Notes: generated by a model from the letters alone, not told the origin. A stretch of 64,000 bases of DNA from Eubacteriales bacterium (GCA_045542075.1 JAZQKI010000042.1:19114-83113); one strand, 5' to 3'. Shown: positions 1,406 to 64,000, numbered from the stretch's first letter. Numbers and translations are program-made.

Positions 1406-3247
1406 TTTATTTTCCTGAGCAGCTCTTCTCGCTCTCATCATTTCCTTCATACGAAGCTCGGTGTTGAGTATCTTTTTGCGGAGTCTGATGGATTTGGGAG
1501 TGACTTCAATAAGCTCGTCGTCGGTTATAAACTCAATAGCCTCCTCAAGGCTGAATATTGTGGGAGGTGTGAGCAGGAGCTTTTCGTCCGCGCCCGCACT
1601 GCGTATAGCGGTAAGATGCTTTTCCTTACAGGGATTGACTGCGATATCGTCGTTCTTGGGGTTCTCGCCTACTATCATTCCCTCATATACGGGGGTTTGA
1701 GGACCAACAAACAGATTTCCTCTCTCCTGTGTGTTATACAGACCGTAACGGGTGGTTACTCCTGCCTCCGACGCAACGAGTGCGCCTGTAAATCTCATAA
1801 TTATACCGCCGCGGTAGGGCTCGTATCCTTCAAAGAGTGTATTGAGTACGCCCTCGCCGTGAGTTGCGGAAAGAAATTCCGAGCGATAACCGAAAAGACA
1901 TCTTGACGGAATGAGATACTCAATTCTCATACGGCTTCCCATGGGATTCATCTCAATAAGATCGCCCTTTCTCTGTCCGAGCTTTTCAATGACCGCGCCC
2001 ACGTATTCGGTGGGTACGTCAAGCGTGACCTTTTCCATAGGCTCGCATTTTACGCCGTCAATTTCCTTTATGATTACCTTGGGGTTTGAGCAGGTAAGCT
2101 CGTAGCCCTCGCGTCTCATGTTTTCAATAAGTATGGAAAGATGCATCTCTCCTCTACCGGAAACTATAAATTCATCTGTTGTCTCGCCGTCACGAACACG
2201 GAGAGAAACATCCTTGAGAAGCTCGCGGTAAAGTCTCTCACGAAGCTGACGGGAGGTGACAAATTTTCCCTCCTTGCCTGCCAAGGGGCTGTCATTTACC
2301 GAGAAGGTCATCTCAACAGTGGGCTCGCTTACCTTAACGAATTCGAGAGGCTCGGGGTTTGTGGTTGCAGTGATGGTATCACCTATGGATATATCACCTG
2401 CTCCCGAGAAGCATACTATATCGCCCATTTTTGCGTTTTCTACGGGCAAACGTCCAAGGCCGTCTATCTGATAAAGAGAAACGATCTTGCTCTTTATGGG
2501 CTTTTGATCGGGCTTGTGGAAGTTGCAGATGGCTACCTCCTGACCAACCTTTACAGATCCTCGCTCTATACGTCCGATTCCTATTCTTCCAACGTACTCG
2601 TTGTAGTCAATAGAAGAAACAAGAAGCTGAAGGTCCCCGTCGATATCGCCCTCGGGCGCGGGGATGTATTCAAGTATCTTTTCAAAAAGGGGTACGAGAT
2701 TTTCACCCGGTACGTCGGGATCCTCGGATGCGGTTCCTTCTCTGCCCGAGCAATAAAGCATGGGAGAGTCGAGCTGATCGTCAGATGCGCCAAGGTCGAT
2801 AAGAAGCTCAAGTATCTCGTCCTCAACTTCTCCGAGACGGGCATCGGGCTTGTCTATTTTGTTGAAGCACACGATGACTCTGTGATTAAGCTCAAGCGCA
2901 CGCTTAAGAACAAATCTTGTCTGAGGCATGGGACCTTCCGCAGCGTCAACAAGAAGAATAACACCGTTTACCATTTTAAGCACACGCTCAACCTCTCCGC
3001 CGAAGTCAGCGTGTCCGGGAGTGTCGACAATATTTATCTTTACGTCCTTGTAATGTACAGCTGTGTTTTTTGCAAGAATGGTAATACCTCTCTCACGTTC
3101 AATGTCTCCCGAGTCCATAACGCAGGTTACAGTTTCCTGATTTTCACGGTATATACCGCCCTGCTTTAGGAGACCGTCAACAAGTGTTGTTTTTCCATGG
3201 TCAACGTGCGCTATTATTGCGACGTTTCTTAAATCCTCTCTTACCAT
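1403..3247 (-). CDS. typA: Translational GTPase TypA/BipA
   Basis: 614 aa. N-terminus [29 protein letters not shown] and NKIDK G-motifs; EF-G-like domains throughout. Confidence 0.95.
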
Positions 3248-3366
3248 ACTTACCTCACATCTAAAAATTTTCCACTCATTATTATATCATAATTTTTTTC
3301 AATAATAAATCATAAAAACAACGATTATTTACAAATTTCGCATTATTTCATTGTGCAATTTGACAT

Positions 3367-3400
3367 AAAAAAAGCCTTCTTCGTTTTGAAGAAGGCTTTT
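3367..3400 (-). terminator. Intrinsic terminator downstream of trxA
   Basis: Stem gccttcttc/gaagaaggc with a 5-nt loop, followed by a T7 run on the minus strand. Confidence 0.75.
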
Positions 3401-3404
3401 GAAA

Positions 3405-3713
3405 TTATTTGAGCATCTCGAGTATTGCCTCAAGGGGTCTGTAGCCGACTGCCTTATCTGCAAGCTTGCCGTCCTTGAGCAATATAAGTGTGGGTATGCT
3501 GTGAACATCGTAAGCGTTTGCTATAGCGCCCGCCTCGTCAACGTCAACCTTGCATACTACAACGTCATTTCTCGTGTTTGCTATTTCCTCTATATGAGGG
3601 GCGATCATTTTACAAGGACCGCACCAGGTTGCGTAAAAATCAATAAGCACGGGTTTTTCGCTGTTCAAGGCGACCTGCTCAAAATTATCAACTGTTAATT
3701 TTACAATAGCCAT
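3405..3713 (-). CDS. trxA: Thioredoxin
   Basis: 102 aa with a WCGPC active site and typical thioredoxin length and pattern (VLIDFYATWCGPCKMIAP). Confidence 0.9.
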   Translation of the reverse strand: MAIVKLTVDNFEQVALNSEKPVLIDFYATWCGPCKMIAPHIEEIANTRNDVVVCKVDVDEAGAIANAYDVHSIPTLILLKDGKLADKAVGYRPLEAILEMLK

Positions 3714-3724
3714 ATCTGATCTCC

Positions 3725-3922
3725 TTATTTTTGTTTGTAATAAAGCATACAGTGACAGTATCCCTCAAAATCGGGATCCTTTATCTGCTCCTTGAATTCC
3801 TTACATACGCATTTGGTGTCCTCTGTTCTTTCGCGGCGGCAAGGACAGTAACCTCCCGTGCGTTCGAGTCCCTTGCGTATGGTTTCAACTATTTCCTTAT
3901 CGGGATTTTCTATTATTTTCAT
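3725..3922 (-). CDS. Small protein resembling the ferredoxin:thioredoxin reductase catalytic subunit (FTR-B-like)
   Basis: 65 aa with the Cys pattern CPC-x10-CVC-x15-CHC (GYCPCRRERTEDTKCVCKEF...EGYCHCMLY). This is the CPC/CxC/CHC signature of the FTR catalytic chain. It ends 11 nt upstream of the trxA start. Confidence 0.65.
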   Translation of the reverse strand: MKIIENPDKEIVETIRKGLERTGGYCPCRRERTEDTKCVCKEFKEQIKDPDFEGYCHCMLYYKQK

Positions 3923-49835: not shown

Positions 49836-50585
49836 ATGAAAAAAAATACCTTTCTTTTGACTATAATCGGAACGGTTGCGTCAATTGTTCTGACGGTAAT
49901 TTATACGTTGCTGATGAATTTGACAGCAAGCCTTAGCTTTGCGGCATTTGCTCCCGATGCTCCCGTCATAGCTCTGCGCGAGCATACAACGATTTTTATT
50001 ATTGGCGCATTTCTTGTGTTTGAGGTAATCTTCTTTATCTATCTTTTCTCTGCTATGGCAAAGGAAAAGAGCGATAAGCAAGACGGTGTGCTGCTCGGCG
50101 GTAGGTCAATTGATGATAAGAAGAAATCTAAAATAACTCTTTCAAAAACAACAAAAATCGCGGGTATTGTTGGAATAGCTCTGCTTGTCGGAATGCTTGC
50201 CTTCAATGCGGGCGTTTATACCGAGGTGTCCAAGGACTCCATAAAGAAAAAGACATTTATAACCACACAAGAGTACACGTGGGATGACGTTTATAGATAT
50301 ACCTTCTCCTGCGACGAAAATGCCGAGCTTAAATATTCCGTGCAAATGACCGACGGAAAGTCCTTCCAGATACTTGTTTCATCAAATTCCTGCTCCGAGG
50401 AGTTTACAGAGGAGTTTGGCGACGTGTTGACCTTTGCATACTACCTCTCGTGTGAATTTGAAAGCAGTGACAGGCAGATCATAAAGGATATTGTGGGACT
50501 TGAATATATGGAGCAATACTATAAATCCAACGAGACAAATTGGTCGAAAATTGAGAAAATAATCAACGCGGGAGATACCCCGTAA
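49836..50585 (+). CDS. Hypothetical membrane protein (3 TM)
   Basis: 249 aa with RBS AAGGTGATAAA. No recognisable motif. Confidence 0.5.
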   Translation: MKKNTFLLTIIGTVASIVLTVIYTLLMNLTASLSFAAFAPDAPVIALREHTTIFIIGAFLVFEVIFFIYLFSAMAKEKSDKQDGVLLGGRSIDDKKKSKITLSKTTKIAGIVGIALLVGMLAFNAGVYTEVSKDSIKKKTFITTQEYTWDDVYRYTFSCDENAELKYSVQMTDGKSFQILVSSNSCSEEFTEEFGDVLTFAYYLSCEFESSDRQIIKDIVGLEYMEQYYKSNETNWSKIEKIINAGDTP

Positions 50586-50700: not shown

Positions 50701-51564
50701 TTATTCTTCCATAATAATAAACCTAATTCTTTCATTTCGTTCAACAATATACTCTCCTTGGTAATGAATACCCTTAATTTCGGCAGAACAGAAAAGAGCA
50801 TATTTTCCCTCTTCTGTCTTTGTTAGAGTATATTCTATATTTTCATACTTAAATTCATCGTAATTTTCTGCGACATTACCATATATCTCGTTAAGTCTTG
50901 TTTCAACCAGCTTACCCACGGTATCCATGTCAAAGTTGATTTTAACGTCTTCCTCTATTTGTCCAAACATAAATGAGGAATAGCTGTACAAACTTCCATC
51001 CCGATTAACACTGACAGTTGCAGTGTCCACCGTTTCTGTTTCATTAACAAATTTGGTAAATTTCACATCATAAGTCTTTGAAACTTTATTAATATTAACT
51101 TCTACGTTGTAATGTGTCACATCTCCAATAGATGACAGGAATTTTTTTGCTATACTAACATATTCATCTTCTGTCAATTCTGTGTCGCCTTTTATTTCGC
51201 TATTACCCCAAAAAAATGACGTTAGCTTCCCATCTGACGACACCGAAAATATGTTGTTTTCATCATCCATATACATATGTGTTGCATAGCAGTTTGGACT
51301 TTGTACTTTTGATTTCAGATATGTGGCGTTTATTGTTGTCCCATTCACCTCTATAGTAATGTCTTTATCTGCCTTTGAATCATAATATGATTTTCCGGTC
51401 CATTTATCGTATTCCACTTCACAGTCAACTCCAGGTATTGAATCTGTATATCCACAGATTTGAATGGAATATTTATCAGAAGTTGATGAATGTGACCTCG
51501 CTTCGCATGAGCAAAGCAATCCAATCAATAGAAAAATTATTATTAAACACGTTATTTTTTTCAT
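50701..51564 (-). CDS. Hypothetical lipoprotein on an AT-rich insert
   Basis: Start MKKITCLIIIFLLIGLLCSC (AAAGGAG RBS, lipobox-like LLCSC). No known motif. Hand-counted 60-nt samples give 27% and 38% GC, against 55% in a rarA sample. Confidence 0.6.
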   Translation of the reverse strand: MKKITCLIIIFLLIGLLCSCEARSHSSTSDKYSIQICGYTDSIPGVDCEVEYDKWTGKSYYDSKADKDITIEVNGTTINATYLKSKVQSPNCYATHMYMDDENNIFSVSSDGKLTSFFWGNSEIKGDTELTEDEYVSIAKKFLSSIGDVTHYNVEVNINKVSKTYDVKFTKFVNETETVDTATVSVNRDGSLYSYSSFMFGQIEEDVKINFDMDTVGKLVETRLNEIYGNVAENYDEFKYENIEYTLTKTEEGKYALFCSAEIKGIHYQGEYIVERNERIRFIIMEE

Positions 51565-51848
51565 TACGATGCTCCTTTCACAAAAAATCAAACATCTGCG
51601 GTACTTATAGACAAAAAATATTCTCTTCAACTATATTAGTCGCTAAAAAATCACTTTGGTTACAGAAAAAACGCATAGGTATGGCAGACCCGCCAATCTA
51701 TGCGTAAATTACCTTTTGTCAATAAACTCGGCAACTGCTTGTTGTCGGGCGATATTGCTTATAATTTATTTTACCATATTTTTACATTAAATATGTGAAC
51801 TATGTGTAAATCCTATATAATAGAACTGCTCACGGGTATGCCGAGCAT

Positions 51849-54012: not shown

Positions 54013-54161
54013 ACCGCACCTCCAAAAATTACTGATATTATTATACCACACGCAAATTATACTGTCAACACAAATTTGTTTAATAGCGTCTGCGCCTATT
54101 GACTGTAAAATTTTTTTGTGATATAATTACTATGTATAATTATGAGAAAGTGAGAGTTTTT

Positions 54162-54971
54162 ATGTCACAAAGCGCAATAAAGCGCACGCATCTTATCTAC
54201 GGGATATGCTTGTCCGTAGTTATAGTGATCACGGCGCTAAGTATAATATTATCGTGCTATGCCATATACGGTGGCGGAGACGGAGAGTTTTCACGTCAGA
54301 TCGTAGCGGAGCAGTTTTCAAAAATTGCCGCTCTTGTTTATTTCTGCCTTGCGGGTATTGTCGGCGGTGTTATCCTGTCTATCTGCCTCCCTGTCATAAA
54401 GGAGTCGGCCGCTAAGGAGAATATCAAAAGCCTTAAGGCGCATCCGAATTATTTTATGACTCGCGAGAGACTTGCGCAGAAGGTATCTCTTGACAGCTGT
54501 GAGCCTATGCTTGCTAAAAAAATAAAAAACGAGCGTGTCAAGAGAGTAATATATGCCTGCGCTTGCTCGGTCCTTTGCGTAGCTTGCGCTGTTCCTTTGC
54601 TGCTTGAGATCTGCAATCCCGCAAATTACGACAAATATCTTATAAATCAAAGCATTATTCCTGCGGTGGTTCTCACTCTCATCTGGTGCTTGTGCGCTTT
54701 GATATTCTGTCTTGGACTAAGTATCATAACCCGTATAAGTCAAAAAGCTGAAATAGCTTATCTTAAGGAGGCAATATCCCTTGGGGCATCCGCTCCCAAG
54801 AAGGTGGATACCGCCAAGGCAAAAAAAGAGACCATTGTTTTGTGGTGCGTGCGAGGTGTTATTCTTGCGTTTGCGATAGTATTTGCTATTGTGGGTATTG
54901 TCAACGGCGGAATGGCTGACGTTCTTGGAAAGGCTATAAGACTCTGTACAGAGTGCATAGGATTGGGGTGA
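54162..54971 (+). CDS. Five-TM membrane protein ending in a CxxC motif (…LCTECIGLG*)
   Basis: The stop lies 4 nt before the next start. It is Cys-rich within its TM helices. The C-terminal CTEC motif resembles small CXXC proteins I recall (unverified) as partners of 4Fe-4S membrane proteins in Clostridia. The start is ambiguous (54099 or 54162). Confidence 0.6.
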   Translation: MSQSAIKRTHLIYGICLSVVIVITALSIILSCYAIYGGGDGEFSRQIVAEQFSKIAALVYFCLAGIVGGVILSICLPVIKESAAKENIKSLKAHPNYFMTRERLAQKVSLDSCEPMLAKKIKNERVKRVIYACACSVLCVACAVPLLLEICNPANYDKYLINQSIIPAVVLTLIWCLCALIFCLGLSIITRISQKAEIAYLKEAISLGASAPKKVDTAKAKKETIVLWCVRGVILAFAIVFAIVGIVNGGMADVLGKAIRLCTECIGLG

Positions 54972-54975
54972 TATT

Positions 54976-56853
54976 ATGGGCAAGATAAAAAATTGGTTTA
55001 TAGCTCACAAGCCCTCAAAGCGTAGAATAATTCAGCTCTACGCGGCACTTCTTTTCAATGCTAATATAAAGGGCTTTATCAAGGGAAGCATTTACACGGG
55101 ACCGCTGAAGAACGTCTGCACTCCCGGTCTTAACTGTTATTCCTGCCCGGGTGCTTCGGGAGCCTGTCCTCTTGGCGCGCTTCAGAATTCACTTGCAAGC
55201 TCAAATAAGCGACTTCCCTATTATATGTTTGGAATCATACTGCTTTACGGTATAATTTTCGGCAGGTGGATATGCTCGTTTTTGTGTCCTTTCGGACTTA
55301 TTCAGGAGCTTTTACATAAGATCAAGACTCCCAAGCTCAAGAAAAACCGCTTTACAAGAGTTCTCTCATACTTAAAATACGTCATACTCGTTGTGTTCGT
55401 ATTCATATTCCCGCTTATGTATATGCTCAAGAGCGTTCCTCTACCCGGATTTTGCAAGTATATTTGTCCTGCGGGAACACTTGAGGGCGCGATGGGCTTG
55501 CTTGCGAACAAGGTAAATTCAAGCTGGTTCTCAATGCTTGGTCCTCTGTTTACCTGGAAATTCATTTTACTTGTAAGCTTTGTGACCGGAGCGATATTTA
55601 TTTTCAGATTTTTCTGCCGTTTCTTCTGTCCTCTCGGAGCGATATACGGATTGTTCAACAAAATATCATTCTTTGGCGTAAAGCTTGATAAGTCCAAGTG
55701 TACAAGCTGTAACATCTGCGTAAGTAAGTGTAAGATGGATATTCACCACGTTGGCGACCAGGAATGTATAAGCTGCGGCGAGTGTATTGACTCCTGCCCT
55801 ACGGGAGCGATCTCCTGGAAGGGCTCAAAGATAATCCTTCACGCAAACGAAATTGATATAGACGAGAATACAACTCCCATCGGTACTCCCGAGCGCGAGG
55901 CTCTCGTGGCGAAAAAGAAAGCGAAGATCGATAAACGGAATAAGATCATTAAGATCAGTGTTATTGTTGCTATGGCGGCGCTTCTTATCGGAGCTCTTCT
56001 CCACTACAACGTATTCTACGACGACGGAAGCAAAACAACTCCTCCCGTAGAAAATCCCACAGAAACACCAACAGAGCCTATAATCCCCGAAACTCACGGC
56101 CTTGATATGACGCTTGATACTACAACAAACACATATATTGTGACAGGCATCGGTGACGTCACAGACACGGAGATAGCAATTCCCTCCGAATATGAGGGTG
56201 TTGCAGTCACAGGTATAGGCGCGGAGGCATTCAAGGATTGCACAACGCTTACTGCCGTCACCATTCCCGAGAGCATTACGTTTATTGGCGAAAATGCTTT
56301 TAGTGGTTGCGATAATATTGTTATCAACTGCAGAATACTCAAGGCTGACAAGCCTTCGGGTTGGGCTGAAAACTGGTGCTCAGATAAAGCAACTGTGACA
56401 TGGCTGCTTCCCCCCGTCGGAAATGCGGTCGGCAGTCTTTGTCCCACCATGACGCTTGACACGTACTCGGGCGGAACATTCAGCATCGAGCAGACTAAAG
56501 GCAAGATCACCGTACTTAATTTCTGGGGTACCTGGTGTACTCCCTGCGTTCAGGAGCTTCCTCATTTTAATGAGATAGCAAATGAATATAAGGACAGCGT
56601 TGCAGTCGCTGTAATACATTCCAATCTTGACGTTGAGACGGGCGGAGATTATATAAACGAGACATTCCCGTCAACAAATATGATAGTTCCTCACGATACT
56701 CAGAATGACGATTATTACATCACCCTGGGCGGAACGATATCCTACCCCATGACAGTTATAATTGACGAGGACGGAATTATAATTTTCTCCAAGGTTGGAA
56801 GTGTGACCTATAATGAACTTAAGAGCGTTATTGACTCCGCTCTTTCAGACTGA
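54976..56853 (+). CDS. Fusion protein: NapH/CcoG-like polyferredoxin membrane domain, TM anchor, PT linker, BspA-type LRR, and a TlpA/ResA-like thioredoxin domain
   Basis: Five CPxG motifs in or near TM helices (CPGASGACPLG, CPFG, CPAG, CPLG). Two ferredoxin clusters (CTSCNICVSKC, CISCGECIDSCP). Late TM IIKISVIVAMAALLIGALL and linker PVENPTETPTEP. LRR segment IAIPSEYEGVAVTGIGAEAFKDCTTLTAVTIPESITFIGENAFSGC. Thioredoxin fold VLNFWGTWCTPCVQELP (WCTPC at 56533-56547). Confidence 0.8.
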   Translation: MGKIKNWFIAHKPSKRRIIQLYAALLFNANIKGFIKGSIYTGPLKNVCTPGLNCYSCPGASGACPLGALQNSLASSNKRLPYYMFGIILLYGIIFGRWICSFLCPFGLIQELLHKIKTPKLKKNRFTRVLSYLKYVILVVFVFIFPLMYMLKSVPLPGFCKYICPAGTLEGAMGLLANKVNSSWFSMLGPLFTWKFILLVSFVTGAIFIFRFFCRFFCPLGAIYGLFNKISFFGVKLDKSKCTSCNICVSKCKMDIHHVGDQECISCGECIDSCPTGAISWKGSKIILHANEIDIDENTTPIGTPEREALVAKKKAKIDKRNKIIKISVIVAMAALLIGALLHYNVFYDDGSKTTPPVENPTETPTEPIIPETHGLDMTLDTTTNTYIVTGIGDVTDTEIAIPSEYEGVAVTGIGAEAFKDCTTLTAVTIPESITFIGENAFSGCDNIVINCRILKADKPSGWAENWCSDKATVTWLLPPVGNAVGSLCPTMTLDTYSGGTFSIEQTKGKITVLNFWGTWCTPCVQELPHFNEIANEYKDSVAVAVIHSNLDVETGGDYINETFPSTNMIVPHDTQNDDYYITLGGTISYPMTVIIDEDGIIIFSKVGSVTYNELKSVIDSALSD

Positions 56854-56854
56854 T

Positions 56855-56893
56855 AAAAAACCCTTGTGTTCGATTGAACACAAGGGCTTTTTA
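56855..56893. terminator. Bidirectional terminator between convergent genes
   Basis: 11-bp stem cccttgtgttc/gaacacaaggg with loop gatt, flanked by A6 and T5 runs. Confidence 0.75.
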
Positions 56894-56894
56894 T

Positions 56895-59800
56895 TTATGC
56901 TACTGTGGGTGTGAGGGTTATCTCTCCACCCGAATTGTTTATGATCGCAAAATAGTTGGGCTCGGTGTACTCTATCGCTCCCGGCTGGGACGCGAATTTA
57001 ATTTTAATAACACCGCTTGCATTTGCACTATAGGTCTGACCGTTGTATATGACTGTCACGCCCTTTGCATTGTTGATAGTCATAGTCATTCCTGCGGAAC
57101 GGGGATACGAACAATATATTGTCGCTCCCGACGCTACGGTGACCGATCCTCCCTCAAGAGGGACATTATAGGGATGGTCCTCGTCTCTGCCGTCATAAAC
57201 AAAATCCGCCGCATTCGCTATCTCTATTGTACATTCAAAGCCGTACAGTCCCGATTCCTCTCCGACAAGGAACGCTTCATCATTGATAAAGCCCTCGGGA
57301 AGATTTTTTATTCTTATAGTAACCGTGGAGGATACCTTGGTTATCAGTCCAACAAAGCCTTTGCTGTTCGTTGTCTTTACTGCAAAGGGCTCTTCAGCCT
57401 CTGAGGAAGCATAGAACTCTATGGTAACACCCGCCAAGGGCTTTCTGTTTGAGGCGTCTACAAACGTGAGCTTGAACGCGCTTTCAGGCTTAATATATCC
57501 GCAAACTGTGCATATGTAGCTCGCATTATACTCATGTCCGAGCGCGGGTACTACCTCATATCCGCAGGCGGTACATGTCTGAGCCGTTGTACAGGTCGCC
57601 TCCTGAGCTCCGGGTGTGTGGGGCTTGAATTCCTCAAGGACTTCATAGCACACAATACACATTTTTCTGTACGCGCAGCTGGACTCCTCACGATTGGGGG
57701 TGTGTCCTGTGGCAGCTGCGATAACTGTATTACATACCGTGCATATCTGATCCTCGGTACAAGTGGGTGTTTTCTTATCAGGCGCGTGCTTTCCTGTCGC
57801 GGCTACAAGCACTTCCTTGCATACGGTACATATCTGATCATCAATACACGTTGCCGCGGGACCGGGTGTATGTTTTGCGGCTACAAGCACTTCCTTACAT
57901 ACTGTACAAATCTGATCTGTGGTACAGGTTGCGGCATCGCCCGGGGTATGTCCCAGAGCGGCTACAATAACTGCTTTACATACCGTACACTTCTGTGCCT
58001 CGGTACAAGTCGCCTCGTCGCCGGGTGTGTGGGGCTTCTTTTCGACTGCTCTGCTCTGAGTCACCGCGCCGCAGTCTGCGCATATAAGACCCTCTGTTCC
58101 CTCTTCAGCGCAGGTCGATTCCTTTGTAACCTTCCATTCAACCGTCTCGTGACTGCATCCAAATCCGCATGTACACCAGCCGTTACTGTCAAGGCTGTGT
58201 GCCTCGGGCTGACTTGTGACATCGGGGCATTTTGTGCAGATCTGCCAGTGAGAGTTCTCATCATACTGATACGCATCCGACCAATCATGACCAAGAGCGT
58301 CTATTGTTTCCTGCTCCTTTATAATGGTGCCGCAGACTGAGCATTTCTCTCCGTCCGTAAGACCCGTATTTACACAATCGGGTGCTTTACCCACTACTGT
58401 TTCGGGAGTATGAGGCAGAGCTTCAAGTGTCTCCTGCGCTACTATGATCTCTCCGCAAACCGAGCATTTGATGCCCGAGGTAAGTCCTGTATTTGAACAG
58501 GTTGCTTGAACTGCGGGTATTTCTTCCTCCGTGTGAGTCGTATATCTTTCACTTCCACACTTATTACAGATAGCGGCACACTCGTTATCATACGTATGTT
58601 CACAGGTAAATCTGTCGGGAAGTGTTGTGATCTCGGTGTCAAAGCTTGCCGTAAAGCTTACGGGCTTTGTTGCATTGTCAAACAAATTCAAGGTTTCTAT
58701 ATAAACGTCAACCTTATCCCCCGCTGACAAAAATACATACGGAAGCGGATTGTATTGGTCATCCTGTACCATTATTCCGTTTACATGTATAATTATTGCC
58801 GCATCCAGGCTGTCTATCCAGAAAAATCCGCTTTCGGACGCGTCAAAGACGTAGCAATATCTGCTTATTCCGGGGTCCGCAAGCGACGTTCCGATAATAA
58901 ATTCGGGAGTTACTGTTTCCTCTCCAAGTGATACCTCAAAGGGATTTGATTCAGATCCGAGGACGTCATTTGCGTCAATTATTGAAAGCTTTATGCTGAC
59001 GTTTGAACTGCCTGAATTTACAATTGCAAAATCGTTGGGAATTGAGTAATAAATATCAACGGGATTTCCGTTTTCATCAAGCTGGGCATCAAACTGTACG
59101 GTTATTTCTCCGCTATCGGACAAATATTCAACGCCGTTATAAATAACCTTAAGAGTTCCCGTTAAATCAGTAATTTTCAAAACAAAGCCGGGCGTTCTGG
59201 GCGCTCTGCAATAAAGAGTTTTATGAGCCTCGACTGTGATGACGTCTCTGTTCTGAACTATAAGGGGAGTTTCTGCTCTTGAGCCGTTTGCCTCGTAGTC
59301 AGCGGGATCAGCGATCGTAATCGTTATTTCATGCTGATTACTGTCAAGCAAATACGAATCGTTATTAGGATATTTTGCGGGAAGCCCTGAAAGGACCACG
59401 GTATATGACCTCTCCGCCGCCCAAACGGACGCAACACCGTCAGCATCCGTCACACCTGTATTTACAAGATTTCCCGACGAGGTATAAAACTCAACCGTAA
59501 CTCCTACGATCGCCTGCTCTGTGAACTGGTCAAGAATAGTTATTTTATATTCAACTGCCACCTCAACGGTAAATTCAACCTTGGTTTCATTCTCAAAGGC
59601 AAGCTCTTCGTCCTCAAAAACGTATCCCTCTGCCTCTACTATCCTTGCGGTGTAGCCGTCCGATTCTTCAAGCTCTGCTGTAAACTTGCCCTTGGAATTA
59701 GTATTTCCCGACGCTACGCAGGTCTCACCCTGATATATTTCAACCACAGCGCCTGACACCTTATTGCCGTCAAAATCCTCAACCGTGACAGTATACGTCA

Positions 59801-60026
59801 CCTTTGTCACGGGCGGTTCAGTGGGCTTTTCGGTAGGATTCTCTGTAGGAGTTTCCGTGGGAGTTTCCGTAGGTGCTCCGCTTGGCGCCTCGGTGGGAGT
59901 GCTATCTGTGTTCTCCGTGGGTGTTTTTGTGGGTGTTTCATTTCTGTCACATGATACTGCGAAGATCAGGGTTGCAAGTGCAATACAGACACACAGTATC
60001 AGCGATATTATTCTTTTCAAATTCAT
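56895..60026 (-). CDS. Giant surface lipoprotein: PT linker, Ig-like domains, PPC-like beta-sandwiches and about 10 Cys3-His repeats
   Basis: Lipobox FAVSC and a TPTE linker. The N-terminal domain is paralogous to those at 38204 and 60153 (YTVTVEDFDGNKVSGAVVEIYQGETC...). The central array includes HTPGDEATCTEAQKCTVCKAVIVAALGHTPGDAATCTTDQICTVCKEVLVAAKHTPGPAATCIDDQICTVC... Confidence 0.8.
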   Translation of the reverse strand: MNLKRIISLILCVCIALATLIFAVSCDRNETPTKTPTENTDSTPTEAPSGAPTETPTETPTENPTEKPTEPPVTKVTYTVTVEDFDGNKVSGAVVEIYQGETCVASGNTNSKGKFTAELEESDGYTARIVEAEGYVFEDEELAFENETKVEFTVEVAVEYKITILDQFTEQAIVGVTVEFYTSSGNLVNTGVTDADGVASVWAAERSYTVVLSGLPAKYPNNDSYLLDSNQHEITITIADPADYEANGSRAETPLIVQNRDVITVEAHKTLYCRAPRTPGFVLKITDLTGTLKVIYNGVEYLSDSGEITVQFDAQLDENGNPVDIYYSIPNDFAIVNSGSSNVSIKLSIIDANDVLGSESNPFEVSLGEETVTPEFIIGTSLADPGISRYCYVFDASESGFFWIDSLDAAIIIHVNGIMVQDDQYNPLPYVFLSAGDKVDVYIETLNLFDNATKPVSFTASFDTEITTLPDRFTCEHTYDNECAAICNKCGSERYTTHTEEEIPAVQATCSNTGLTSGIKCSVCGEIIVAQETLEALPHTPETVVGKAPDCVNTGLTDGEKCSVCGTIIKEQETIDALGHDWSDAYQYDENSHWQICTKCPDVTSQPEAHSLDSNGWCTCGFGCSHETVEWKVTKESTCAEEGTEGLICADCGAVTQSRAVEKKPHTPGDEATCTEAQKCTVCKAVIVAALGHTPGDAATCTTDQICTVCKEVLVAAKHTPGPAATCIDDQICTVCKEVLVAATGKHAPDKKTPTCTEDQICTVCNTVIAAATGHTPNREESSCAYRKMCIVCYEVLEEFKPHTPGAQEATCTTAQTCTACGYEVVPALGHEYNASYICTVCGYIKPESAFKLTFVDASNRKPLAGVTIEFYASSEAEEPFAVKTTNSKGFVGLITKVSSTVTIRIKNLPEGFINDEAFLVGEESGLYGFECTIEIANAADFVYDGRDEDHPYNVPLEGGSVTVASGATIYCSYPRSAGMTMTINNAKGVTVIYNGQTYSANASGVIKIKFASQPGAIEYTEPNYFAIINNSGGEITLTPTVA
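57490..58615 (-). repeat. Coding array of Cys3-His repeat units (long form C-x9-C-x2-CG; short form TC-x5-C-x2-C; each followed by GH/PH)
   Basis: About 10 units are visible in the translation. Near-identical 41-mers at 57799-57839 and 57877-57917 (78-bp period) show recent unit duplication. Confidence 0.7.
59811..59936 (-). repeat. PT(E) linker-coding short tandem repeat
   Basis: Encodes TPTKTPTENTDSTPTEAPSGAPTETPTETPTENPTEKPTEPP. Confidence 0.8.
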
Positions 60027-60109
60027 AGTCGCAAGACCTCCGTTTTCGGATAGATAAGTATATTATATCATTTGAATTTATTTATTGCAATAGGTTTTAA
60101 TTTTTGTTT

Positions 60110-60146
60110 ACAAAAAACAGCGTTCTGAAATCAAAACGCTGTTTTT
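60110..60146 (-). terminator. Intrinsic terminator downstream of the 60153 lipoprotein gene
   Basis: Stem cagcgtt/aacgctg, extended by A:T pairs, followed by a T6 run on the minus strand. Confidence 0.6.
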
Positions 60147-60152
60147 GTGCAT

Positions 60153-61829
60153 TTATTCTGCGTATTCGTAAGAATACGTGACTTCAAGCTCACCCTCAAG
60201 GCTTTCGCTTGCATTTATGGTAAAGCTCTTATCCTGTGTGACATTGATGACTATCTTTCCGTTCTCGTCAGGGGTATAGGTCTCTCCGCCATAAGTCACG
60301 GTTATTCCCTCGCCCGCATTTACGGTAAGAGTCACGTTTACTGCTTCCTTTTCATTGATCTTGAAGTAAACCGTATCAGCCGCTCCGACAAGTGAGGTCG
60401 AGCCCTCGGGGTTTATCTTAAGCGCGCCGTCCGCATTTGTGCCTGTGTCCTTTACCTCGACCGTGCAAGCGGCAAAGAGCCAAGCATTCTTCACGGGAGG
60501 CTTTTCAACCCCGTATATATCATACAGGTTGTTTTCGGATTCGTAATTCCACCAGCCTGCATGCTCACCGTGCTGCTTAATGATATACTCAAGCATCTCG
60601 TCAAGAGGATATATTCCCGATGCGTCCGCAGCCTCCGCATATTTCTCAATTATCTCGTTATAGCTTTCCTTTTTCAAGGGATTGCCGTCCTCATCAGAGA
60701 AATAACGGCACATTCTTCCTGTCTCGATTATGGTTGCAAAAGACGCCATATTGGGCTTTTGTAATCCGCTTTCCTCATCGGTATAGAAGCCAAAGTAATC
60801 TACGTTTGCAAAAATACGCACGTAAATTATAGGTCCGTTTGCGTCTCCAAGGTGATAAAATCCGTCATCACCGAGAACCAACGTAAGATCCTCATCCATA
60901 AGGTCAAGATTGTTGAGAGTCACAGTCTTATTCTGATACGTGAGACGGTGCTCCGCAAGCTCTCCGTTAAGGCTGGGTATTTCCCATGCAATATCCGCAA
61001 ACGTAAGGGGCATATCCGCAACTCTTTCAATAACCAGCACTGCGTCCTTTGCGGATCCGTCCGTGGTGAGTCCTATAACGCACACAACACTGCTATCGGC
61101 ACCTATACTTGACTTATGTATGGGATACTCGACAGTATTGTCGACGACGTCAAGAAGCGAGTTAGGAAATACTGTCAGCACGCTTCCGCCGTAATATCCG
61201 ACCGTGACCTCCTTATCGGAGATAACGCTGATCTTATATATTCCGTCTCTCTGGGGCTTGAAGATAAAGAAGGATCTCTCACCCTCGTACTCGCTTGAGG
61301 TAACTCCGCGGAGCTTTACATACGTTGCGCCCTCATTTACGTATCCTGCGCCGTATTCGCTTGCGTAAAAGTCCTTGTTGGTATTTGTAACTCTGCTGTA
61401 AACAGAAATTGTAGCCTGGTTATTTTCTGCTGTAAGGGTGCATTCCTCCTCAAACTCATAGCCGTCCGCAGACGTAATGTCAAAGCTCAGATCATACTCG
61501 CCGGCAACAGCCTCAAAGGACGCTTTGCCCTGTGTCACAACAGCGGCAACCGCACCGTCGGAAAACGTAACTACACCCGAGAAATCTGTCATTGTATTTC
61601 CCTTGTAATCAACAAATTCTACCGAATAAGCTATCTTTTCATCAACCGGGGGCTGTGTTGTAGGCTTCTCTGTGGGAGTCTCCGTGGGCTTTTCGGTAGG
61701 GGCCTCAGTAGGTGTGCTTGTGGGTTGAATTGTGGGAGTTTCATTCTTATCGTCACAAGCGACAAGAGCAATCACGCACGTAAGCATCAGTGCAATTGCA
61801 ATTATACTGAGATATCTTCTTGATTTCAT
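60153..61829 (-). CDS. Surface lipoprotein paralogue (PT linker, Ig-like domain, PPC-like domains, one DG-x-YH module)
   Basis: Lipobox ALVAC and a TPTE linker. N-terminal domain YSVEFVDYKGNTMTDFSGVV... Module LVLGDDGFYHLGDANGPIIYV...LDEMLEYIIKQHG...NAWLFAC is shared with the next gene. Confidence 0.75.
   Translation of the reverse strand: MKSRRYLSIIAIALMLTCVIALVACDDKNETPTIQPTSTPTEAPTEKPTETPTEKPTTQPPVDEKIAYSVEFVDYKGNTMTDFSGVVTFSDGAVAAVVTQGKASFEAVAGEYDLSFDITSADGYEFEEECTLTAENNQATISVYSRVTNTNKDFYASEYGAGYVNEGATYVKLRGVTSSEYEGERSFFIFKPQRDGIYKISVISDKEVTVGYYGGSVLTVFPNSLLDVVDNTVEYPIHKSSIGADSSVVCVIGLTTDGSAKDAVLVIERVADMPLTFADIAWEIPSLNGELAEHRLTYQNKTVTLNNLDLMDEDLTLVLGDDGFYHLGDANGPIIYVRIFANVDYFGFYTDEESGLQKPNMASFATIIETGRMCRYFSDEDGNPLKKESYNEIIEKYAEAADASGIYPLDEMLEYIIKQHGEHAGWWNYESENNLYDIYGVEKPPVKNAWLFAACTVEVKDTGTNADGALKINPEGSTSLVGAADTVYFKINEKEAVNVTLTVNAGEGITVTYGGETYTPDENGKIVINVTQDKSFTINASESLEGELEVTYSYEYAE
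61647..61739 (-). repeat. PT(E) linker-coding short tandem repeat
   Basis: Encodes TPTIQPTSTPTEAPTEKPTETPTEKPTTQPP. Confidence 0.8.
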
Positions 61830-61853
61830 AATTATCTCCTTTTCTCAAAACTT

Positions 61854-61893
61854 CAAAACGTCGGTTCTTGCGAGAACCGCAAAAACCGACGTA
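61854..61893 (-). terminator. Possible terminator with two mutually exclusive stems
   Basis: The minus-strand RNA is ACGUCGGUU-uuug-CGGUUCU-cgca-AGAACCGACGU-UUUG. The 3' arm can pair with either upstream segment. It is followed by UUUUgaagUUUU. Confidence 0.4.
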
Positions 61894-61902
61894 GATGATC
61901 AA

Positions 61903-64000
61903 TTATTCTGCGGCTACGGTAGGTCCATAGTGCTTGTAATAGAAGCAAAGCTTTGTCCAGCTATGCTCAACACCCTCGAGGGAATATCTGTCCATAAACA
62001 TCTGAAGAATTTCTGCAAGCTCCTCGGTCATCTCGATACAACCGTTGAGCTCTTCATTCTCGTTATTGGTAATTACCTGATCAAGATATGCCTGCATTTG
62101 CTCGGTGTAATCACCTGCGCCGTGGTAAATACCGTTTTTTACCTCCTCGATAAGCTCGACTCTTTGAGCGTAGAGGTATTCGCCCCAAGCCTCCTTGAAG
62201 CCCTGAGCCTCATCAATGCCCGCAGCCTCGAATTCCTCAATAAAGCCCTCTATCTCAACATCAAGAGAGGTTTTGTCAAAGTTGAAGCCGTCAAGCTTAA
62301 TCGCATCCTCAATGGAATGGCTGAACAGACCTGTACGCGTCCAGAAATCAGCATAGAGCACAGGGCCCTGCGTGCCGTCCTCGTTCTTTACGTAATACTT
62401 GCCGTCAACGAGCATTACGTCAACACCTGTTGCCTCGGGAGTTGCGCCGTAGTCTATCTCTCCGTCACCGTCATCGGGCATTGTGAAGGGCCCGGGGGAT
62501 GCGTGAGTAAATATGTCGGCAACATCGCCTTCTCTTTCAATTCTGAAGGTAAAGGATCCGGACGCATATATATCATAGTATGCGAGGTCCATATAACAGG
62601 TTTCGCCTGCTTTTATATACACAAGCATGGAAACATTCTTGGTATCCTGCCACATCTTTTCAGCATGCTCGTAGGTATAGATAAGCTCGTGATTTTCATC
62701 AAACAACCAAGCGTCAATAGCATAATCAACGCCGTCCACTATTCCCTCTGCCGTGCTGTACGAGGTAATGCGGTATACGCCCGACTCCTCGGGGGTAAAC
62801 GCATAGAGATAACCTCTTGGCATTACTATCTGGGTATAGGTCACCTCGTTTGCAATATCAAGCTTTGCTTCAAACGCGGAGAAAATCGCAAGTCCCTTTA
62901 TGGGGTCCATCATTTGCTCGCCGTTTGTGCCGTATGCATCATAGTAAACGCACATCTGAAGCCACTCGTTCGGGTTGTCTGCCTCGGTACCGACCGCCTC
63001 GCAAACTATCTCAAGAAGCTCGCGGAGCTCCTCATTTACACTACAATAGCCGTACATTCTGGAGTTTACAGAATAGTTGGAATACTCCTCAAACTGATCA
63101 ACGTAATCAATGCCGTTGAGCTTGATAAGACCGTTATAAGCCATCATCCATACGGACATGGTATTGCTGAATCGGGTGTATCCCATAAGGTTAGCAAGAA
63201 GGATAGGTCCGTCCGCCGTACCTACGTGGTAGTAGCCGTCCTCACCGAGAACAACCTCAACGTAGCTGTTGTAGCCTGAGCCAAGATCATTGAAATCGTT
63301 TGCGGCGTGTCTGAAAATATAGGTCTCCTTGTCTATTTCACTTGCGTCAACGATCCTGAGATCCTTGATATACATAGTATCGTCGCCAACGTCAGAACCG
63401 GAATCCTTTATATAGCAGAGCGCAAGCTCGTACGTGCCGTCTTCAAGAGCTACATAAGGATATACTGTGTCCCAATCGTCTCCGTCGCCCGAAAGCTGAT
63501 ACATATCCTGTCTGTCAACAAGAATATAAAGAATATCTGCTCCAAGCTCGGTAGAAGCCCAGTAATCAAAGGCTATTGCCTGTCCTGCCTTGAGCTCTAC
63601 GTCAGCATAAATTATAGAATACGTGGAATGCTTGAACGCGTTTGAGGTTTTAATGCAAGTCTCTCCGTTCTTTTCGCCGATTATAAAGGGCCAAGCGTAT
63701 TCCGCATCCTCGGGATTAGCCTCTCCGCGGTATGTGACACTTATATCGCCCTTGTTAAGCACCGCGCCTATCTCCTCGGATGAAGGCATTGAAACGTTTG
63801 GCTTGGCAACGGGAGTAAGAATAGAGGGGTCAGATATAAGCTGCTGCTGATAATCATCACCTGTGAAATAATCAAATATTGCCTGGAACTGATGCGCGGA
63901 CATAGCGCCCTCAATAACAAAGCAAATAACTCCATATCTGTCAACAACAATTGACGTGGGCGCGCCCGAGGGATTGAAGTTTGCGATAATTCCCTGGTCA
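61903..64000 (-). CDS. Large exported protein, 5' end outside the window: ResA/TlpA-like domain tail, beta-sandwich, two DG-x-YH modules and a PPC-like domain
   Basis: The frame stays open upstream of the listed Met at 63903 to base 64000 (DQGIIANFNPSGAPTSIVVDRYGVICFVIEGAMSAHQFQAIFDYF). This resembles the C-terminal strands and helix of ResA/TlpA thioredoxin folds. The modules VVLGEDGYYHVGTADGPILLA...NEWLQMCVYY and VMLVDGKYYVKNEDGTQGPVLYA...HSWTKLCFYY are internal repeats. Confidence 0.75.
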   Translation of the reverse strand, partial: DQGIIANFNPSGAPTSIVVDRYGVICFVIEGAMSAHQFQAIFDYFTGDDYQQQLISDPSILTPVAKPNVSMPSSEEIGAVLNKGDISVTYRGEANPEDAEYAWPFIIGEKNGETCIKTSNAFKHSTYSIIYADVELKAGQAIAFDYWASTELGADILYILVDRQDMYQLSGDGDDWDTVYPYVALEDGTYELALCYIKDSGSDVGDDTMYIKDLRIVDASEIDKETYIFRHAANDFNDLGSGYNSYVEVVLGEDGYYHVGTADGPILLANLMGYTRFSNTMSVWMMAYNGLIKLNGIDYVDQFEEYSNYSVNSRMYGYCSVNEELRELLEIVCEAVGTEADNPNEWLQMCVYYDAYGTNGEQMMDPIKGLAIFSAFEAKLDIANEVTYTQIVMPRGYLYAFTPEESGVYRITSYSTAEGIVDGVDYAIDAWLFDENHELIYTYEHAEKMWQDTKNVSMLVYIKAGETCYMDLAYYDIYASGSFTFRIEREGDVADIFTHASPGPFTMPDDGDGEIDYGATPEATGVDVMLVDGKYYVKNEDGTQGPVLYADFWTRTGLFSHSIEDAIKLDGFNFDKTSLDVEIEGFIEEFEAAGIDEAQGFKEAWGEYLYAQRVELIEEVKNGIYHGAGDYTEQMQAYLDQVITNNENEELNGCIEMTEELAEILQMFMDRYSLEGVEHSWTKLCFYYKHYGPTVAAE

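Follow-up and report, generated by a model that had tools for sequence, protein, structure and literature searches.

What kind of system is encoded where a polyferredoxin, a thioredoxin and several surface lipoproteins meet on one stretch of bacterial DNA? The question is raised by a 64,000-nucleotide stretch from a Eubacteriales bacterium (GCA_045542075.1 JAZQKI010000042.1:19114-83113; the window refers to this whole stretch), in which five genes, here called A to E, span positions 54162 to 64000. The initial annotation, which had counted six genes, read them as a linked extracytoplasmic thiol-redox locus with a plausible transmembrane (TM) electron conduit formed by A and B and two exported thioredoxin folds, one in B and one in E, and this reading is supported by the conservation of the linkage. 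We propose that the locus specifies a system of two tiers for thiol-disulfide reduction outside the cytoplasm, probably serving extracellular protein breakdown and peptide uptake, a proposal that we hold with about as much confidence as doubt. What the analysis shows is the domain content of the genes, their invariant residues and their linkage, together with similarities of fold.

The central gene is B (54976..56853, plus strand; 625 aa), which had been described as a fusion of a polyferredoxin, a TM helix, a PT-rich linker, leucine-rich repeats (LRR) and a thioredoxin domain with a WCTPC motif. Pfam domains above their cut-offs bear this out, with two matches to Fer4_5 and one each to Fer4, LRR_5, Redoxin and AhpC-TSA. 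A NapH-like membrane core (54976..55674; Fer4_5, 1.8e-16) carries an N-terminal motif, C48-x5-C54-x2-C57P-x5-C64P, and three CX3CP motifs (C100/C104, C160/C164 and C214/C218). It is followed by a 2x[4Fe-4S] ferredoxin domain with CxxCxxCxxxC twice (55675..55854), which matches polyferredoxins in the PDB and is predicted to be cytoplasmic, and then by an extra TM helix (55945..56001), which is predicted to take the C-terminal half outward, with KKKAKIDKRNK on the inside and DDGS on the outside, and by the PT-rich linker. A BspA-type LRR_5 insert (56098..56385; PF13306), found in the nearest ~14 homologues only, precedes a TlpA/ResA-like thioredoxin domain containing the WCTPC motif (56425..56835; Redoxin 50.4 bits versus a cut-off of 26.6, AhpC-TSA 49.5 bits versus 26). 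A peroxiredoxin reading of the AhpC-TSA matches was ruled out, since the active site is a TlpA-type CxxC and not that of a peroxiredoxin. By sequence, the ferredoxin domain alone had relatives in the PDB; none was found for the membrane core.

A scan that took a single genome for each GTDB species found relatives of B in at least 593 stretches, and the best 80 were analyzed with up to 10 kb on each side. These 80 loci come from Oscillospiraceae-type "Eubacteriales" metagenome-assembled genomes, from Lachnospiraceae, including the isolate Butyrivibrio sp. VCD2006 (L065), and from Acholeplasmatales/Anaeroplasma. An alignment of twelve diverse members (44 to 100% identical across matched parts) gives the family plan, in which a highly conserved N-terminal half of ~330 aa is joined through a TM helix and a variable linker to between one and three thioredoxin domains. 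Ten Cys residues of the membrane core, eight of the ferredoxin domain and the thioredoxin CxxC pair (C521 and C524) are all invariant in this alignment, and the N-terminal Cys motif is present in 72 of 76 homologues from species-representative genomes. Among the thioredoxin motifs of 76 B homologues, CGPC is the commonest (29), followed by CTPC (17). More than 5,500 proteins match B, and Fer4_5 and Redoxin are both present in all of the best 120; judged from these sequences, the NapH-thioredoxin fusion is ancient and obligate.

B shares the plan of NapH, with a four-TM core, two CX3CP motifs after TM helices (C100x3C104P and C214x3C218P) and then two 4Fe-4S motifs. Its scores nonetheless fall far short of the family thresholds, at 71.4 bits versus a cut-off of 213 for TIGR02163 (NapH/MauN) and 57.3 versus 234 for NF007013, the NapH equivalog model. 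B also resembles NosR in NCBIfam, again far under the equivalog cut-off. By these scores, B is homologous to NapH but is not NapH. Similarly, its thioredoxin domain lies below every equivalog cut-off (ResA, 68.6 bits versus 170; StoA, 56.5 versus 210; DsbE, 41.3 versus 123), and no ccm or res genes were seen near B. No Nap-type genes occur among the annotated neighbors in the window region or in loci L001, L105, L107 and L108, and neither A to E nor the precomputed Pfam annotation of neighbors in L001 and L105 to L108 contains a match to FMN_bind or ApbE.

Gene A (54162..54971, plus strand) encodes a 269-aa membrane protein with five hydrophobic segments that ends in ...LCTECIGLG. As had been noted, its stop codon lies 4 nt before the ATG of B, and the ribosome-binding site of B falls inside the last codons of A. 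The last TM helix and the C-terminal tail (54846..54968, ending ...NGGMADVLGKAIRLCTECIGLG-COOH) form a CD1871A-family CXXC module that is predicted to face outward. Residues 233 to 269 match positions 2 to 38 of the 38-position NCBIfam model NF040920 (CD1871A family CXXC motif-containing protein) with 36.5 bits versus a cut-off of 32. The tail pattern K-A-x-x-I-C-[TSK]-E-C-[IV]-G-[LM]-G is kept in all 62 called homologues, each of which stops exactly 4 residues past the second Cys. Outside the tail, A has four N-terminal TM segments and is poorly conserved (median identity 30% among 54 homologues). With 269 aa, and a homologue median of 268 aa, A is not a small (~40 aa) TM plus CxxC protein; by its profile match it is a long form of the CD1871A family that carries the family module at its C terminus.

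On which side of the membrane do these Cys motifs lie? Hydropathy and the positive-inside rule were used to predict the topology of A and B. For B, the prediction places the very basic N terminus, the loop at residues 104 to 135 and the Fe-S domain (residues 215 to 323, ending KKKAKIDKRNK) inside, and the acidic C-terminal 283 residues, comprising the PT linker, LRR and thioredoxin, outside. This arrangement agrees with the published plan of NapH, in which two cytoplasmic CX3CP motifs are followed by cytoplasmic clusters (PMC5928378). Six more invariant Cys residues of B (C48, C54, C57, C64, C160 and C164) and two of A would then lie on the outer face, given that the loops of A at residues 80 to 125 and 184 to 228 are K/R-rich, hence predicted to be cytoplasmic, with the CTEC tail predicted to be outside. 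A Tat-exported Fe-S domain was ruled out, as B has no twin-arginine motif and a strongly positive flank precedes the TM helix at residues 324 to 342. Lipobox calls on C, D and E were made by sequence inspection; in each, the lipobox Cys (...IFAVSC|D in C, ...ALVAC|D in D and ...AFVGC|D in E) follows a K/R-rich start and a hydrophobic helix. Charge bias and the PT linker in B, and the lipobox in E, thus predict extracytoplasmic thioredoxin domains in both proteins, as the initial annotation had supposed.

The direction of electron flow is likewise predicted. A reductive direction is favored by the CGPC and CTPC motifs and by the low potential that clusters of the ferredoxin type should have; CGPC is the classical thioredoxin motif, and the closest solved relatives of these domains (ResA, TlpA, Etrx and DipZ) are reductive. 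Low-potential ferredoxin-type clusters are also poor acceptors of electrons from thiols, which counts against the opposite scheme, in which A and B would form disulfides in the manner of DsbB or VKOR-thioredoxin proteins and pass electrons from exported Cys-rich proteins inward to the Fe-S clusters. Such a scheme could draw on the classical view of NapH as a quinol-linked redox protein (PMC5928378) and on the abundance of Cys-rich extracellular repeat proteins, some of which are encoded in a few of these loci (gene C of the window, L007, L015 and L022). The Cys3-His repeat of C is, however, absent from 77 of the 80, and a CGPC/CTPC motif on a TlpA/ResA-like fold is typical of reductants. We therefore consider an oxidative direction hardly probable.

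The tail of A lies directly 5' of B in all 80 loci, in 79 by tblastn and also in the 80th (L041), where the upstream protein likewise ends in ...KAINICTECIGLG; in most loci the stop codon of A overlaps the start of B or is separated from it by no more than ~12 nt. Conservation of the linkage in related genomes had been set beforehand as a test of the proposed locus, and it extends beyond this pair. Of the 80 loci, 36 have full flanks. Among these, A was found in 35 by a stricter count, an E homologue (28 to 49% identity) in 21, a D homologue in 15, an S8-family protease in 18 and a ~460-aa protein 3' of the S8 gene in 17; E or S8 is present in 24. By our own estimate, a one- or two-copy gene in a 2- to 3-Mb genome would lie within 10 kb by chance in ~1 to 2% of loci, compared with 58% for E. 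The linkage of A with B, of E with D, and of A-B with E, D or S8 is thus far beyond chance; of the genes whose co-occurrence had been proposed, only the Cys-repeat lipoprotein C departs from this pattern.

In the window, A and B converge on C, D and E, and the terminator previously placed between them corresponds to a stem-loop at 56861..56886 (11-bp stem). Two convergent units separated by a terminator are what chance neighbors might look like, yet a chance assembly of the five genes is extremely improbable given the pairing of A with B, the frequency of E nearby and the co-directional strings found elsewhere. The order varies between lineages, but the members stay the same. Most Oscillospiraceae-type loci read S8(-) A(+) B(+) x(-) D(-) E(-); a single strand carries A-B-E-D-x-S8 in L107 and E-A-B in the Acholeplasmatales. 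In all, seven other loci (L107, L032, L036, L041, L048, L052 and L022) carry co-directional strings, so the independence of two units suggested by the window is not borne out. A metagenome scan with the body of E, which returned mainly short contigs and is informative for E-D and E-S8 adjacency only, placed D directly 3' of E in 15 loci and an S8 gene adjacent to E wherever the contig extends far enough.

What, then, would such a conduit feed? Gene E (61903..64000 and beyond, minus strand) is open to the window edge, and the window covers aa 262 to 959 of 959. The true start lies ~780 nt outside, and an internal ATG at 63903 gives a closed open reading frame (ORF) of 666 aa. The missing part was recovered from L001, a contig from this strain or from one close to it, in which B is 98% identical to the window copy. 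Complete, E is a lipoprotein of 959 aa. It starts with a lipobox, a PT linker and an Ig-like domain, continues with a CGYC thioredoxin domain and ends in a ~650-aa body in which two beta-sandwich binding modules precede two DGxYH modules. The protein at the window edge had been suspected of ending a ResA/TlpA-like domain, and this thioredoxin was confirmed. Gene D (60153..61829, minus strand) encodes a 558-aa lipoprotein with a lipobox, a PT linker, an Ig-like domain and a single DGxYH module in common with E; it belongs to no known family, and its homologues are all named "hypothetical." The three similarly built lipoproteins of the initial annotation exist, but the third is E itself, which had been listed separately as a further large protein, and only the N termini of C and D lie in the window.

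The thioredoxin domain of E is well defined. C201 and C204 are invariant, most relatives have C-[STG]-[WY]-C, and the CGYC of the window protein is the DsbC motif. A sequence search of the PDB placed ResA first (1.4e-24), and the TM-score to ResA structures was 0.86 to 0.88. The AlphaFold 2 (AF2) models were confident, with a predicted local distance difference test (pLDDT) score of 87 over the whole protein and of 84.5 over the body when modeled separately. With the whole protein, the best Foldseek matches were the C-terminal thioredoxin plus carbohydrate-binding module (CBM) domains of Mycobacterium tuberculosis DipZ (5cyy and 2hyx), then ResA, Etrx2 (4hqz and 2yp6), StoA and CcmG. Since thioredoxin matches dominated this search, the body was re-predicted alone to reveal other domains. 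It matched the collagen-binding domains of ColG (1nqj, TM-score 0.78 on the target), the collagenase PPC domain (5sv5, 0.69), CBM51, CBM22 and CBM61, and CUB and MAM domains. For the two DGxYH alpha/beta modules Foldseek found no match, the body had no PDB relative by sequence, and Pfam held nothing credible, even at E≤1, for the body of E, for D or for the jelly-roll unit of C. NCBIfam gave no match for C or E and one chance-level match for D.

Two further observations concern the lipoproteins themselves. Each DGxYH module of E contains a Cys pair with the same 31-residue spacing (580/611 and 915/946; window ~62941-63042 and 61942-62037, minus strand), of which three residues, C611, C915 and C946, never vary and the fourth, C580, is conserved to at least 90%; in D, the second Cys is the only one retained. 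These pairs could be structural or redox-active disulfides. In addition, a homology search found a 100% identical 558-aa cluster for D (P0241, on a 239,718-bp contig), whereas an exact-sequence look-up returned no gene on record.

The likeness of E to Etrx2 raises the question of whether A, B and E defend the surface against oxidative stress, repairing oxidized Cys and Met or detoxifying oxidants as the pneumococcal CcdA-Etrx-MsrAB2 system does. The significant AhpC-TSA and Redoxin matches and the fact that the hosts are strict gut anaerobes would be compatible with such a role. However, no Msr, peroxidase or catalase-type partner was found in the neighborhoods inspected, the CxxC site is again TlpA-type, and a defense role would leave the association with S8 proteases, peptide uptake and binding modules unexplained. 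We regard it as improbable.

That association became apparent when the region past window base 64000 was inspected in L001, which supplied both the N terminus of E and, just beyond it and divergent, a 2,956-aa protein with Peptidase_S8, PA, fn3_5 and LRR_5 domains (L001 20085-21878: Peptidase_S8, 5e-30; PA, 3e-16; fn3_5 and LRR_5 are taken from the precomputed Pfam annotation of the full proteins). S8 cell-envelope proteases of this kind, 2,400 to 2,950 aa long, are also encoded in L105 (2334-9722) and L108 (2271-9704). Their catalytic part is 58 to 70% identical over many species, and next to them come genes for a conserved protein of ~460 aa and for SBP_bac_5; in L105 and L108 the SBP_bac_5 gene lies just past the S8 gene and the 460-aa gene. 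In some of the Acholeplasmatales loci an Opp peptide transporter comes after E-A-B: L036 has SBP_bac_5, OppB, OppC and OppD/F in this place, and L052 has the same predicted gene order. Genuine Opp components lie within 10 kb in ~7 of the 80 loci, a count to be read with the fact that S8-bearing flanks mostly end before that position. An ABC-ATPase cluster found in 17 loci was considered as a sign of Opp linkage and dropped after an Opp-specific segment check. Separately, E-A-B strings of the Acholeplasmatales type repeatedly have two proteins with von Willebrand factor A domains nearby, one of ~610 and one of ~890 aa (L036 3-4488, L052 142-4630 and L048 18363-21114).

Since S8 protease and peptide-uptake genes surround the system, a role in proteolysis and peptide acquisition, or in maturation of the protease, is indicated rather than the upkeep of C. 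Of these, opening of disulfides in extracellular proteins and peptides, so that they can be cleaved by S8 and imported by Opp, appears to be the most likely purpose, given the adjacent giant S8 protease, the Opp genes in some lineages and the binding modules of E. A parallel is provided by keratin, on which disulfide reduction cooperates with proteases (PMC6906142).

The maturation role deserves separate consideration. Here E, recycled by A and B, would be dedicated to the adjacent S8 protease and to further surface proteins that contain Cys, acting on them as a foldase or as a disulfide isomerase/reductase. E adjoins the S8 gene divergently in L001, L105, L108 and several short contigs, much as the gene for the lipoprotein PrtM is divergent from lactococcal prtP; the CGYC of E recalls DsbC, which is kept reduced by DsbD; the S8 proteases have 17 to 35 Cys; and the LRR_5 insert of B is homologous to the LRR_5 repeats of the neighboring S8 proteases. 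Nevertheless, the Acholeplasmatales retain E-A-B with no S8 gene within 10 kb, which disfavors this role, the collagen-binding and CBM-like modules of E are more typical of substrate capture, and 12 full-flank B loci lack E, D and S8. Taken together, these considerations make a maturation role unlikely, though a serious alternative.

Could C instead be the client? The initial annotation had suggested that the system keeps this Cys-rich lipoprotein, or its metal sites, reduced or correctly assembled. Gene C (56895..60026, minus strand) encodes a 1,043-aa lipoprotein with a lipobox, a PT linker and, in Pfam, Ig-like domains only. The ~10 Cys3-His repeats and more than 35 Cys attributed to one lipoprotein are found in C: its Cys number 46, and its array at aa 475 to 842 (57501..58604, minus strand), built of a generic extracellular repeat, contains about twelve H-x(5-8)-C-x5-C-x2-C units. 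Residues ~157 to 341 of C resemble its C-terminal ~240 residues (37% identity, detected via the L003 homologue) and are jelly-roll-like, an internal duplication that makes the array look as if it had been inserted between two Ig plus jelly-roll units.

The distribution of the repeat argues against C as the client. It occurs in 3 of the 80 B loci; the operon position is conserved, but its usual occupant is an Ig-domain lipoprotein of 140 to 590 aa without the repeat. The premise that such Cys-rich surface proteins are extraordinary here is also weakened: among 1.84 billion cluster representatives, 17,340 proteins carry the repeat (8,618 at E≤1e-10), many of them giants, which reach 7,169 aa and 46 matched stretches, and sampled carriers also have LRR_5, Big_2, dockerin, NAGPA or Ig-like domains. 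The repeat is without a model in Pfam, NCBIfam and the PDB, and seems to represent a family of extracellular repeats that is both numerous and unannotated, rather than a hallmark of the A-B system. A role centered on C can point to its presence in one operon with E and D, both here and in L003, and to a lipoprotein in L007 that combines the repeat with Ig and thioredoxin domains, but with the repeat spread over thousands of unrelated large proteins we consider it very improbable.

The L007 lipoprotein gene (2231-3859, plus strand) lies just upstream of A-B, as does a gene for a 480-aa thioredoxin plus Ig-like lipoprotein in Butyrivibrio sp. VCD2006 (L065 8075-9517, plus strand). Loci without E often have another thioredoxin lipoprotein upstream, and a second exported thioredoxin may therefore be a general partner of A-B.

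How might the two-tier reducing system work? From the results above we infer its topology, its direction of electron flow, the contacts among A, B and E, and its physiological client. In the first tier, A and B, which would be translationally coupled, would act as a single membrane complex, with the 2x[4Fe-4S] domain and two CX3CP motifs of B on the cytoplasmic face and its six invariant Cys on the outer face. The extra TM helix would tether the TlpA-like thioredoxin outside, and A would add its outward CTEC-IGLG tail. Electrons would pass from a cytoplasmic low-potential donor to the Fe-S domain of B, through the Cys motifs to the CxxC of A, then to the thioredoxin of B and finally to E. To cross the membrane, the Cys motifs could serve as cluster ligands or as a dithiol/disulfide relay, in the style of ferredoxin:thioredoxin reductase or of DsbD; CX3CP motifs have been suggested to be redox disulfides by Buttet et al. 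(PMC5928378), and NapH-like proteins have been proposed by Méheust et al. to be modular transmembrane electron conduits with flavin heads (PMC8238504). In the second tier, E would be kept reduced by B and would act on macromolecular substrates held by its beta-sandwich modules, D is a thioredoxin-less relative of E, and C a lineage-specific, decorated third lipoprotein.

Several points weigh against this model. The 12 of 36 full-flank B loci without E, D or S8 suggest that the tiers are separable, and two of the three long E-centered loci (L105 and L108) have no A-B within 10 kb. The Cys residues of the S8 proteases themselves mean that a maturation role fits the same linkage. The first TM segment of B (aa 18 to 36) is weakly hydrophobic, in a topology derived from hydropathy and the positive-inside rule only. 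Finally, Fe-S clusters transfer one electron and a disulfide requires two, so that a step like that of ferredoxin:thioredoxin reductase or heterodisulfide reductase has to be assumed, and building any outer-face cofactors on a Gram-positive membrane would be a difficulty.

The remaining features of the region are minor. A promoter-like site 5' of A (54099..54127, plus strand; TTGACT-17-TATAAT with TG, 11 of 12 matches) and another between D and C (60062..60090, minus strand; 10 of 12 matches with TG) are consensus matches only; from the second, C may also be transcribed on its own. Upstream of the locus, a lipoprotein-like ORF (50701-51630, minus strand; …LLCSC…) and a membrane-protein ORF (49836-50585, plus strand) lie in a low-GC stretch (0.35 to 0.40 versus ~0.46 elsewhere), and none of the searches made here tied them to the locus.

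If the model is correct, what would it add? The initial annotation did not recognize the gene combination as a described system, and our literature searches, across 8.3 million papers, found no description of it: no paper dealt with a NapH-thioredoxin fusion or with the gene set, and the name "CD1871A" appeared in none. In databases, these proteins are called "4Fe-4S binding protein," "redoxin family protein" or "hypothetical." To our knowledge, nearly all described pathways that deliver reducing power outside the cytoplasm are DsbD/CcdA relays supplied by cytoplasmic thioredoxin, and the partners that NapH-like modules feed, or are proposed to feed, are flavin heads and respiratory enzymes. 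We tentatively suggest, with rather more doubt than confidence, that A-B is an unrecognized class of transmembrane disulfide reductase and, with E and D, a means of "reductive proteolysis" of host and dietary proteins by gut anaerobes. A NapH-type Fe-S module with a thioredoxin head and an invariant CxxC-tailed partner would then be a third way to carry reducing power through a membrane. In many Clostridia and the Acholeplasmatales, A-B would do the job done elsewhere by DsbD/CcdA; at least several hundred species-level genomes carry such a module. It might also give a handle on CX3CP function in NosR, NapH and PceC. The link to S8 proteases (2,400 to 2,950 aa) and transporters suggests that abundant, uncultured gut Oscillospiraceae reduce extracellular disulfides to feed on proteins, with a bearing on the turnover of mucin, antibody and dietary protein in the gut. 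A cultured carrier, Butyrivibrio sp. VCD2006, makes the idea testable.

Both halves of the system belong to known kinds. As in DsbD/CcdA with TlpA, ResA or CcmG, and in DipZ (Rv2874, a CcdA-like TM domain with thioredoxin and CBM-like domains), a conduit would feed an extracytoplasmic TlpA-like thioredoxin; DipZ is matched both by the thioredoxin fused to the conduit in B and by the thioredoxin joined to beta-sandwich modules in E. Unlike these systems, however, B has no DsbD_2/CcdA domain (PF02683 matched neither A nor B in Pfam) but a NapH-type membrane part with CX3CP motifs and 2x[4Fe-4S], its input would be of the Fe-S/ferredoxin type rather than cytoplasmic thioredoxin, and it needs a separate CxxC-tailed protein, A. 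With NapH, NosR and PceC (RdhC), B shares the Fer4_5 core, two CX3CP motifs on the cytoplasmic face and a proposed role as a module that supplies electrons to a redox head outside the cytoplasm (PMC8238504, PMC5928378), and with NapH and NosR also the C-terminal 2x[4Fe-4S]. The head of B differs in being a C-terminal thioredoxin past an extra TM helix instead of an N-terminal, ApbE-flavinylated FMN (flavin mononucleotide)-binding domain, and B has extra invariant outer-face Cys, an obligatory CD1871A-type partner and no Nap, Nos or Rdh enzyme nearby.

The other comparisons concern chemistry and surroundings. In ferredoxin:thioredoxin reductase and heterodisulfide reductase, a [4Fe-4S] cluster beside a Cys pair turns one-electron input into disulfide reduction; A-B is likened to them by chemistry alone, as those enzymes are soluble or on the cytoplasmic face and not transmembrane. 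The CcdA-Etrx1/Etrx2-MsrAB2 system of Streptococcus pneumoniae, also Gram-positive, has surface TlpA-like thioredoxin lipoproteins fed by a membrane conduit, but no CcdA or Msr was seen near our genes, and E differs in its ~650-aa binding body and its protease and peptide-uptake surroundings. The PrtP/PrtM/Opp system shares with these loci a giant S8 plus PA (plus fn3_5) protease, a divergent lipoprotein gene, and SBP_bac_5 or Opp genes nearby. In place of a PrsA-like prolyl isomerase, however, the divergent lipoprotein E combines a thioredoxin with binding modules, and a membrane redox module has been added.

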